From Elusimicrobiota bacterium (GTDB lineage Bacteria > Elusimicrobiota > UBA8919), in NCBI GenBank assembly GCA_043816185.1, contig JBDRIG010000110.1, positions 1 through 26,302 of the forward strand: DNA of 26,302 bases, in the 5' to 3' direction. The notes under the pieces were generated by a model. It did no database searches. It was not told where the DNA came from and saw only the letters and a list, made by a program, of their open reading frames with translations. This document shows positions 22,030 through 24,531 of the stretch, one piece after another (position 1 is the stretch's first letter; each line of letters starts with the position of its first letter). A program made the position numbers and the translations under genes.

Positions 22030-23901
22030 TTATTTGTTATCTGCCGACGGTTTTACAACACTACCACCGAATAAATCGATAATATTCTTAACTGTCGATG
22101 TAGATGTATTTCGCAATGGCATTGTTGTGCCAGATTTTTTGTTTTTACCAATTGACGTATGCGTTAGTAGCGATGCATTCGCATCCATGATGTCATTATC
22201 CTGTTGATATGCGTCTGAGGAAAGTTCTGTATTTTCCACAACATTTTCTGTAACATTTTCTGTGCCCGAACAGATTGATTGCGTAGATTCGTCGTTAATC
22301 GTGGTATCTAAAGATGGAATCTCGTTTTCTATTTCTTCGTTTTCTGAATTATTGGTATCTCCAATTTTTGTAGTGAATTCAAATTTTCCGCCTAATTTTT
22401 CTTCCATCAAAGGAAGCCATTCGTTTTTGTTTGATAAAACTGTTTCTATTTTATATAGATTATCAAATTCAATAACAGAAATTCCGTCATTTTGAATCGA
22501 TATTTTTGTACCTGAAAAACAACTAAGAATACGAGGTCTGATTTTTTCATTTTTTAAAATTTCACTCCACGCTAAACGAACTTTTTCTTCAGACCAAGTA
22601 GGTTTGTCTATGGTGAAGGAATCAGTTTTAGCAAGTGTGGTTTTTGGTGTCACAGGAGTAGTTTTTGGTGTTAATGGTTCTGAATTTTTTGCGGCTGGTA
22701 ATTTTTTTTCTATTGATTTTTCTTCTATCGGTTTGTCTTCGTTATTTTCAAGGTTTTCTGAGGAGGAAAGGCATGGTGAAGACAATTCAAGATTTTCAAG
22801 ACGGGCTATTAGTTCGTCTAAACCGACATATTTTTGGGTGAGTTTTACGCAAAAAATTTCTAAAATAATAGATGGCTGTTCGGCATTTTTCATTTGATCA
22901 GTACAATTGGAAAGTATTTGTATTAATCGAAACAAAACATCAACAGACAAACTTTGCGAATACAATCCCAATTTTGTCGTATCAGAAACGGTTTGCACTA
23001 ATTCTGGGGAAATTTTATAAAGCATTACATTTCTAATATATTCCTGTAAATCACAAACGATGTTTAGGGGGTCGTATCCGAGCAGCACTGTTTTATCTAC
23101 AATTTGCAAAAGTTTTTTTGTTGCATTTTTTTCAATACACTCAAACATTTCCGAAAGAATATCTTCCTTAACAATTCCAAGTATAGAAATAACATCTTGC
23201 GGAGTTATATTGGTTCCGCAAAAAGATATAATTTGGTCAAAAGTACTTAAAGCATCTCTCAAAGCACCGCCGACAGATCTTGCAATTATGGCAACTGCTT
23301 TATTATCTATTTTAATATTTTCTTTTTCGGCAATTTTTTCTATCTGTACGCTTATTTCTTTTATTGATAGTGGACGAAAACTAAACCGCTGGCATCTGGA
23401 AAGTATTGTCGGAGGAATTTTTTGGGTTGATGTAGTCGCAAATATAAAAACTGCATGTGCTGGTGGTTCTTCAAGAGTTTTCAAAAGTGCGTTAAATGCC
23501 TCAGGTGTTATTTGATGTGCCTCATCTATAATGTAGATTTTATATTTTGACGACGATGGAGCGTATTTTATGTTTTCTCTTAATTCTCTTATTTGTTCTA
23601 TGCCTCTGTTTGAAGCGGCATCTATTTCCATTACATCAATAGAATTACTGTTTGCTATTTCACGACAGGAATTACAATTGCTGCATGGTTGTTGTTCTTG
23701 TATCTGTTTGCAGTTTAATGCCTTGGCAAAGATTCGAGCAACAGTGGTTTTACCAATGCCACGCTGACCTGAAAAAATATAGCCATATGCGATTCTTTTT
23801 TCTTTTATTGCGTTTTTCAATACACGTACTATATGCTCTTGACCTATAACGTCGTCAAATTTTTGTGGTCGATATTTTCTCGCTAAAACAGTATATGACA
23901 T
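22030..23901 (-). CDS. dnaX: DNA polymerase III subunit gamma/tau
   Basis: LARKYRPQ, GQRGIGKTT, EIDAASNRG, IIDEAH, NALLKTLEEPP, TILSRC, GGALRDA. Confidence 0.97.
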   Translation of the reverse strand: MSYTVLARKYRPQKFDDVIGQEHIVRVLKNAIKEKRIAYGYIFSGQRGIGKTTVARIFAKALNCKQIQEQQPCSNCNSCREIANSNSIDVMEIDAASNRGIEQIRELRENIKYAPSSSKYKIYIIDEAHQITPEAFNALLKTLEEPPAHAVFIFATTSTQKIPPTILSRCQRFSFRPLSIKEISVQIEKIAEKENIKIDNKAVAIIARSVGGALRDALSTFDQIISFCGTNITPQDVISILGIVKEDILSEMFECIEKNATKKLLQIVDKTVLLGYDPLNIVCDLQEYIRNVMLYKISPELVQTVSDTTKLGLYSQSLSVDVLFRLIQILSNCTDQMKNAEQPSIILEIFCVKLTQKYVGLDELIARLENLELSSPCLSSSENLENNEDKPIEEKSIEKKLPAAKNSEPLTPKTTPVTPKTTLAKTDSFTIDKPTWSEEKVRLAWSEILKNEKIRPRILSCFSGTKISIQNDGISVIEFDNLYKIETVLSNKNEWLPLMEEKLGGKFEFTTKIGDTNNSENEEIENEIPSLDTTINDESTQSICSGTENVTENVVENTELSSDAYQQDNDIMDANASLLTHTSIGKNKKSGTTMPLRNTSTSTVKNIIDLFGGSVVKPSADNK

Positions 23902-23957: not shown

Positions 23958-23963
23958 CTTTTA

Positions 23964-24036
23964 TGGAGGTGAAGGGGGTTGAACCCTCGACCTCATCGTT
24001 GAGAACGATGCGCTCTCCCAACTGAGCTACACCCCC
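23964..24036 (-). tRNA. tRNA with alanine body and CTC (Glu) anticodon
   Basis: GGGGGTG TA GCTC AGTTGGGA GAGC G CATCG TTCTCAA CGATG AGGTC GAGGG TTCAACC CCCTT CACCTCC A; G3.U70 and A73; anticodon = plus-strand gag 24001-24003. Confidence 0.93.
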
Positions 24037-24091
24037 AAGGATTATTTAGGAATAAATTGACGTGAAGTGTGTCATTGCAGACGACCTTGTC

Positions 24092-24245
24092 GTCGTTGCG
24101 AGAAGCGAATTAAATGAGCGATGAAGCAATCTCGATTGTTCTATCGTGTCTCGACCCTGCTTGTCATCTCGACTGAAAGGAGAGATCTCTCTGTTTCGAC
24201 TGGAAGAGATCCATCGGTCGCTACGCTTACTCGGGATGACAGGCG
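24092..24245. repeat. Composite palindromic repeat (left flank of cassette)
   Basis: gtcgttgcgag...gaagcaatctc half element (24092-24133); tgtcatctcga/tcgggatgaca palindrome (24162-24241); 42-bp segment 24204-24245 repeated at 25377-25418. Confidence 0.7.
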
Positions 24246-24350
24246 TTCCGAATAACACCGCGTACAATAAAGCATACAATAAAATAATCAAAACTGTTAC
24301 TGAAATGCTGAACAGTTATGCACGGTGCACAGTAGAAAAATACTCAAAAA

Positions 24351-24506
24351 TCAACCATTATTGTCTTCAACAAATTTTTTAATATCTTCTATGTGCTGAA
24401 GCATTAATTTTGCTTTTGCAATACCAAAAGAAAATGGATATTTATCATTTTCATCCCGTTTCAAAACAATAATCTTGTTCCCCTTAAACTCCGATAATTC
24501 AAACAT
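24351..24506 (-). CDS. Small 51-aa protein, unknown function (absent from ORF track)
   Basis: AGGAGG 8 nt upstream of ATG; MFELSEFKGNKIIVLKRDENDKYPFSFGIAKAKLMLQHIEDIKKFVEDNNG*; starts 25 nt after the upstream gene stop. Confidence 0.8.
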   Translation of the reverse strand: MFELSEFKGNKIIVLKRDENDKYPFSFGIAKAKLMLQHIEDIKKFVEDNNG

Positions 24507-24531
24507 TGCTCTTTCCTCCTATGTGTCTTTT

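Follow-up and report, generated by a model that had tools for sequence, protein, structure and literature searches.

An alanine-type tRNA body with a CUC anticodon at the tRNA-Ala(CGC) locus of an uncultured Elusimicrobiota bacterium

The locus and its neighborhood

The window, by which we mean the whole 26,302-nucleotide stretch of draft genome analyzed here, contains four tRNA genes as called by ARAGORN. One of them occupies positions 23964 to 24036 of the minus strand; ARAGORN places it at 23963-24037 (-) and names it tRNA-Glu(ctc), as the original prediction had expected of annotation tools that go by the anticodon, while Rfam matches positions 23964-24036 (-) to RF00005 over the full model length (66.5 bits, E 1.2e-12). 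Read on the minus strand, its 73 nt are GGGGGUG UA GCUC AGUUGGGA GAGC G CAUCG UUCUCAA CGAUG AGGUC GAGGG UUCAACC CCCUU CACCUCC A. The features described beforehand, for which no strand had been given, can all be seen in these letters: an intact 73-nt cloverleaf, an acceptor stem that opens with G1-C72, G2-C71 and G3.U70 (G3 at 24034 and U70 at 23967, both on the minus strand), the discriminator A73 (23964, minus strand), a D stem GCUC/GAGC, a variable loop of 5 nt and the anticodon CUC. All 21 of the 21 stem pairs are standard, and the acceptor stem of 7 bp and T stem of 5 bp follow the canonical 7/5 geometry. CCA is not encoded in the gene, where A73 is followed by UAA. The minimum free-energy fold of the single sequence differs from the cloverleaf (z-score -1.90), a common outcome for tRNAs in isolation and one to which we attach no weight.

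The anticodon (tRNA positions 36-34) lies at 24001 to 24003 on the minus strand, where the plus strand reads GAG, and is held in the loop UUCUCAA, which combines a YUC anticodon with A37 in the manner of bacterial tRNA-Glu. Its sole departure from the CGC of tRNA-Ala is base 24002 (minus strand), tRNA position 35, where G has become U; the gene is thus one base away from a tRNA-Ala(CGC), as originally proposed, with no other anticodon position changed.

The neighboring genes are on the same strand. dnaX, encoding the gamma/tau subunit of DNA polymerase III (623 aa; 22030 to 23901, minus strand), starts 62 nt downstream of the tRNA and matches the profiles NF004046 (498.9 bits, cut-off 400) and TIGR02397 (442.2 bits). 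Upstream lies a small open reading frame of 51 aa (MFELSEFKGNK...; 24354 to 24509, minus strand), for which neither NCBIfam nor Pfam gave a match. Both genes serve below as anchors of gene order.

Between the small open reading frame and the tRNA is a dispersed-repeat, MITE-like insert (24046 to 24345, no strand assigned) with 49 blastn matches in the same genome. These ~300 nt of repeats at this site are peculiar to this genome; in the same-genus genome G001 the insert is absent and ~55 nt take its place. Five other contigs carry copies, 87-93% identical, of a repeat unit of ~123 nt (~24123-24245), a core of ~40 nt recurs on >25 contigs of the genome, and G001 has similar repeat pieces downstream of its own tRNA. 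A scan for consensus promoters found nothing on the strand of the tRNA and one site on the plus strand, no more than in shuffled sequences, and the upstream flanks of 11 family members share no motif and no conserved promoter. Pairing of the tRNA anticodon with its own leader was considered and dropped, since all orthologs carry plain CGC.

Alanine versus glutamate identity

Two covariance models were built from the tRNAs of this clade, one (R1) from 20 Ala(GGC/UGC) tRNAs of the window's own genome and its relatives, excluding CGC isoacceptors, and the other (R2) from 30 true Glu(CUC) tRNAs. The window tRNA scores 90.2 bits on the alanine model and 48.7 bits on the glutamate model, so the alanine model outscores the glutamate model, as anticipated, with models built from the clade itself. 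The genome's true tRNA-Glu(CUC) shows the reverse pattern (51.1 and 98.8 bits, respectively), and the 48.7 bits of the window tRNA fall within the range that the window's unrelated tRNAs reach on the glutamate model (45-62 bits). In acceptor stem and D arm the window tRNA matches the genome's own tRNA-Ala(GGC) letter for letter.

The D helix tells the same two families apart. In the clade's true tRNA-Glu(CUC), U11:A24 and U13:G22 are present in 30 of 30 sequences, and this glutamate-type helix is missing from the window tRNA, which has C11:G24 and C13:G22 instead. Two features had been offered as setting the tRNA apart from bacterial tRNA-Glu, and only this one stands: the D arm does differ, in all 30 comparisons, but a variable loop of 4 nt is not typical here, as 5 nt separate the anticodon and T stems in 29 of the 30 clade tRNA-Glu(CUC). 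The NGC anticodon of bacterial tRNA-Ala is lacking too, its place being taken by CUC. Judged by model scores, acceptor stem (with G3:U70 and G2:C71), A73 and D arm, the body of the window tRNA is alanine-type.

Alanyl-tRNA synthetase (AlaRS) picks its tRNA through G3:U70 and ignores the anticodon, whereas bacterial GluRS reads the anticodon. The U11:A24 and U13:G22 pairs of the D helix are, we presume, further identity elements for GluRS. The genome encodes a full-length alaS (932 bits), and from this gene and the G3:U70 pair we infer that AlaRS would charge the window tRNA with alanine. Excerpts of a study of human tRNA-Ala variants restate that AlaRS selects by G3:U70 and not by the anticodon (PMC12084884).

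Orthologs carry CGC

We searched 40 relatives for this gene and obtained a match in 37 of them (38 of 41 genomes when the window's own is counted). On the 30 best loci ARAGORN returned the window tRNA itself, 27 tRNA-Ala(CGC), one Ala(UGC) and one Ala(GGC), the last two being cases in which another isoacceptor was the best match in that genome. The CGC isoacceptor was not found in 13 of the 40 relatives searched, where the rest of the matches were weak or there was none; this absence suggests that tRNA-Ala(CGC) is dispensable in parts of the phylum.

Gene order is shared with these loci. The 51-aa open reading frame has tblastn matches upstream of tRNA-Ala(CGC) in the loci of eight relatives, at 78-93% identity, and dnaX follows directly downstream of the tRNA in six, giving the order small open reading frame, tRNA, dnaX. 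Because of this synteny, orthology is confirmed: the window tRNA is, by position as well as by similarity, the ortholog of the lineage's tRNA-Ala(CGC).

The alignment shows the ortholog family to be under clear selection for tRNA structure, with CGC fixed, because its stems covary: 99.7% of cells are paired and both sides vary in 10 of the 21 pairs, a degree of pairing and covariation reached by none of 500 shuffles, with slid controls only 44-59% paired. All 18 distinct ortholog sequences keep G3:U70. Every one of the 27 orthologs has G at position 35, U being confined to the window tRNA, and CUC occurs in none of the 27. Had a selected CTC anticodon been at work, the original prediction reasoned, relatives should retain it while their stems covary, and CGC at this locus in close relatives would refute it; the stems do covary, but 27 of 27 orthologs carry CGC, including that of same-genus G001. 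The G001 ortholog is 97% identical to the window tRNA and differs at 2 of 73 positions, namely position 35 and one variable-loop base that also varies among other relatives; its T stem is the same.

The tRNA gene set of the genome

The genome is a draft of 1.44 Mb in 112 contigs, with 34% G+C and an estimated 94% completeness, in which ARAGORN lists 41 tRNA genes. Among them are a true tRNA-Glu(UUC) (contig C33), a true tRNA-Glu(CUC) (contig C50) and a tRNA-Ala(GGC) (contig C90); tRNA-Glu(CUC) was likewise found in 30 of 30 loci examined. Genes for Ala(UGC) and Ala(CGC) are absent from the ARAGORN list for this assembly, and the search used for the relatives detected no further copy of tRNA-Ala(CGC) in the genome besides the window gene. 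This makes for an annotation trap: the genome appears to have an extra glutamate tRNA and to lack tRNA-Ala(CGC).

The absence of tRNA-Ala(UGC) is most likely an assembly gap. We read it so because the rRNA operon is unassembled (16S is missing, and 23S is represented by its 3' part alone, at the end of a contig) and because one relative (L028) has neighboring Ile(GAU) and Ala(UGC) genes, the arrangement of an rRNA spacer. The partial 23S (contig C104, 45-2673) is unusual in its own right, since ~1.7 kb of its DNA spans only 230 model positions (1785-2014), which suggests that an insertion or intron interrupts the 23S gene. A separate observation concerns the pair tRNA-Arg(UCU) and tRNA-His(GUG), present in two diverged copies (contig C7, 10244-10455, and contig C40, 2750-3865), which may be paralogs or may indicate a bin that includes contigs of a second, related strain.

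GAG still means glutamate

All open reading frames of at least 120 codons from the window's genome were translated and compared by tblastn with ~260 kb of sequence from the same-genus genome, where the tRNA has its normal CGC anticodon. The counts below come from 171 of the 225 alignments, those covering 100 aa or more at 50% identity or better (median identity 75%). GAG codons aligned with glutamate in 560 of 693 cases (80.8%) and with alanine in 11, while GAA codons aligned with glutamate in 81.7% of 2462 cases and with alanine in 19. Alignment with alanine is thus slightly more frequent for GAG than for GAA (11/693 versus 19/2462), a difference that is not significant (Fisher p = 0.07).

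At conserved glutamate positions the share of GAG is 21.8% in this genome and 24.8% in G001. Corresponding shares are 13.6% versus 15.3% for AAG, 35.8% versus 51.0% for CAG and 22.8% versus 29.9% for GCG. Because the drop in GAG is no larger than in these other NNG/NNA pairs, GAG is not avoided, and its lower share reflects the lower G+C content of the genome.

A reassignment of GAG to alanine is ruled out by these data, as GAG aligns with glutamate just as GAA does and the true tRNA-Glu(CUC) and tRNA-Glu(UUC) are both retained. The original prediction had already argued against complete reassignment from individual GAG codons in the motifs YGAEIRGG, QAESE and EKEMY, all of which do encode glutamate on the minus strand, and the genome-wide comparison bears it out.

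Age of the change

The same alignments provide a measure of divergence. At conserved glutamate positions the third base differs between this genome and G001 in 611 of 2572 cases, so silent sites are heavily diverged. Against that background the tRNA, with 2 of 73 differences and every pair kept, must have been constrained in its body for nearly the whole period of separation between the two lineages. The intact pairs and the 2/73 differences, against such diverged silent sites, exclude an old pseudogene; the view that the gene is not long dead was therefore well founded, the same-genus ortholog being this close in a genome pair whose proteins have a median identity of 75%. As far as the two copies can tell, either the anticodon change is recent (or not real), or the tRNA would still be under selection with its new anticodon.

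Occurrence in genome collections and metagenomes

A scan of 185,579 species, represented by one genome each, for the exact alanine D arm with UCUCA downstream at the appropriate spacing gave four loci; this collection may not include the window's own genome, and other D-arm variants would escape the pattern. The four comprise one intact tRNA (L034), two truncated tRNA-like pieces (L031 and L033) and one fragment (L032). The intact case, at 52-124 of its locus (contig C16 of genome G041), is a G3:U70 tRNA with CUC from a metagenome-assembled genome (MAG) labeled Sideroxydans; it scores 78.4 bits on the alanine model and 48.8 bits on the glutamate model, and its contig has, by name, a coverage of ~3x. 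When 20 of its relatives were searched, 13 of 13 best-matching loci carried tRNA-Ala(CGC). By these comparisons it is a second, independent CUC tRNA with an alanine body, and likewise a singleton. The G35-to-U change is thus seen twice, each time in one genome, which is the signature of sporadic mutation or error and not of a lineage trait.

A second scan covered metagenomes with the anticodon arm and T arm of the window tRNA, allowing any base at position 35, in a set that may lack entries for the window's own genome; it returned one contig, which has CGC and resembles the form found in G010.

The two truncated pieces are of a different nature. In a Fimbriimonadaceae MAG (L031, 294-345) and an Ignavibacterium MAG (L033, 294-343), an intact tRNA-Ala gene is preceded, ~50 nt upstream, by a truncated tRNA-Ala-like piece made up of the 5' acceptor half, the D arm, the anticodon arm UCCCG-AUCUCAU-CGGGA/CGUGA and the beginning of the T arm. 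This odd anticodon arm is common to two records labeled as different lineages.

Discussion

The comparison of bodies, loci and anticodons given above identifies the window gene as this lineage's tRNA-Ala(CGC), carrying an anticodon change that is private to it and may be real or artefactual. We lean towards a real G35-to-U allele, private or polymorphic, in an otherwise normal tRNA-Ala(CGC), the only record of the base being the assembly. A recent or polymorphic mutation at base 24002 would then have struck an isoacceptor that the cell can do without, with GCG read by tRNA-Ala(UGC), usually encoded in the rRNA spacer. Alanine would still be attached to the mutated tRNA by AlaRS via G3:U70, and the product, if expressed, would compete with the two genuine tRNA-Glu for GAG, leading to low-level misincorporation of alanine for glutamate. 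The U32-A38 loop context, which we take to be tuned for a GC-rich anticodon, may decode GAG poorly. The outcome would be a tolerated, mildly harmful accident, neither a recoding nor an adaptive device. We find no evidence for a new genetic code or for a dedicated mistranslation system.

A stronger version of this proposal can be put forward only tentatively, and we consider it doubtful: that the U35 allele is real, fixed and expressed, so that the only tRNA-Ala(CGC) gene of a free-living population would be an active alanine-at-GAG mistranslator whose constant low-level errors are tolerated.

Among the alternatives, the one that survives best is an error of sequencing, consensus or assembly, in which the organism's gene reads CGC and a wrong base or rare read variant was recorded at 24002; we regard it as possible, if on the unlikely side. 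The change affects a single base of an anticodon that is otherwise invariant in 27 of 27 relatives, in a draft of 112 contigs, and the one further intact case listed comes from a contig with, by its name, ~3x coverage. The tRNA strand shows a G to T change, the plus strand correspondingly C to A, and oxidative damage during library preparation produces substitutions of this class. Against an error, consensus errors are rare per base and ~123 anticodon bases are a small target, which is an order-of-magnitude argument, and the remainder of the tRNA is without apparent errors, with all of its pairs intact.

Of the four explanations offered originally, assembly error or private mutation has held up, while a natural mistranslator, a tRNA edited at position 35 and a non-ribosomal alanine donor have fared poorly, given CGC in 27 of 27 relatives. 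That the tRNA is a selected device for placing alanine at GAG, comparable to tRNAProX of Streptomyces, seems improbable to us. The idea draws on a fully intact tRNA body and an anticodon-blind AlaRS, and excerpts of PMC10404621 describe dedicated mistranslators in bacteria. Yet CUC is not conserved (0 of 27 orthologs), no partner synthetase gene adjoins the tRNA, its neighbors being the 51-aa open reading frame and dnaX, and codon usage shows no GAG-specific response. In addition, the normal tRNA-Ala(CGC) is replaced and not supplemented, there being no other copy in the genome.

Charging by GluRS through U35-C36-A37, which would turn the gene into an extra and correct tRNA-Glu, is if anything a little more improbable still. 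The new anticodon does supply elements that GluRS reads, but the clade-invariant D-helix pairs of tRNA-Glu (30 of 30) have been replaced by C11:G24 and C13:G22, the glutamate score lies within the range of unrelated tRNAs of the window, and G3:U70 would still make the tRNA a substrate of AlaRS. Hardly credible, finally, is that position 35 is edited or modified to read as G, or that the tRNA donates alanine off the ribosome for cell-wall or lipid aminoacylation: anticodon editing of the U-to-G type is not known from bacteria, the T stem, which sets affinity for EF-Tu, is that of the normal same-genus tRNA-Ala(CGC) with nothing to mark an off-ribosome role, and the change is a singleton among 27 CGC orthologs.

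A real allele in the normal tRNA-Ala(CGC) gene thus remains the reading we prefer. If the base is real, the gene would be a natural bacterial anticodon mutant of tRNA-Ala, of a kind so far documented and tested mainly in humans and engineered yeast, and would show that a bacterium with a small genome can carry such a mutant where the normal gene would be.

Comparison with known systems

Bacterial tRNAs that join G3:U70 to non-alanine anticodons have been described before. The allo-tRNAs of Mukai et al. (PMC5389517) are natural and bacterial, and amber-suppressor versions of them inserted alanine in Escherichia coli; as described in excerpts of that work, their acceptor and T stems are of the 8/4 or 9/3 type, in contrast to the canonical 7/5 of the window tRNA. 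The tRNAProX of Streptomyces and Kitasatospora resemble it in principle, being natural bacterial tRNAs that combine the identity of one amino acid with the anticodon of another and mistranslate (PMC10404621). According to the excerpts of that paper, however, they form conserved families of extra genes, usually beside a special ProRS isoform, whereas the window tRNA is a singleton change in a normal gene with no synthetase nearby.

Engineered anticodon variants of yeast tRNA-Ala illustrate the same principle as the window tRNA in a eukaryote: AlaRS ignores the anticodon, and the variants mistranslate with effects that depend on the anticodon (PMC10543346). The main text of that article, as excerpted, contains no mention of CUC and no data on glutamate anticodons, and its supplements may hold growth data for CUC.

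The nearest precedent is a human allele. G35T in tRNA-Ala-CGC-1-1 is a rare natural variant (frequency 0.0004%) that affects the same isoacceptor by the same base change and yields the same CUC on a G3:U70 body; excerpts of its description report alanine at GAG by mass spectrometry (~0.7%) and, of the three variants tested, the most marked impairment of protein production (PMC12084884). The window tRNA differs in being bacterial, from an uncultured draft genome and known from sequence alone, and in that it would be the only tRNA-Ala(CGC) gene of its bacterium, whereas the human allele is one of many alanine genes. By analogy with the human allele, a real and expressed window tRNA would be predicted to insert some alanine at GAG. 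If the change is also fixed, the gene would be the bacterial counterpart of human G35T, and may offer a snapshot of an anticodon mutation entering an identity system that is blind to the anticodon.
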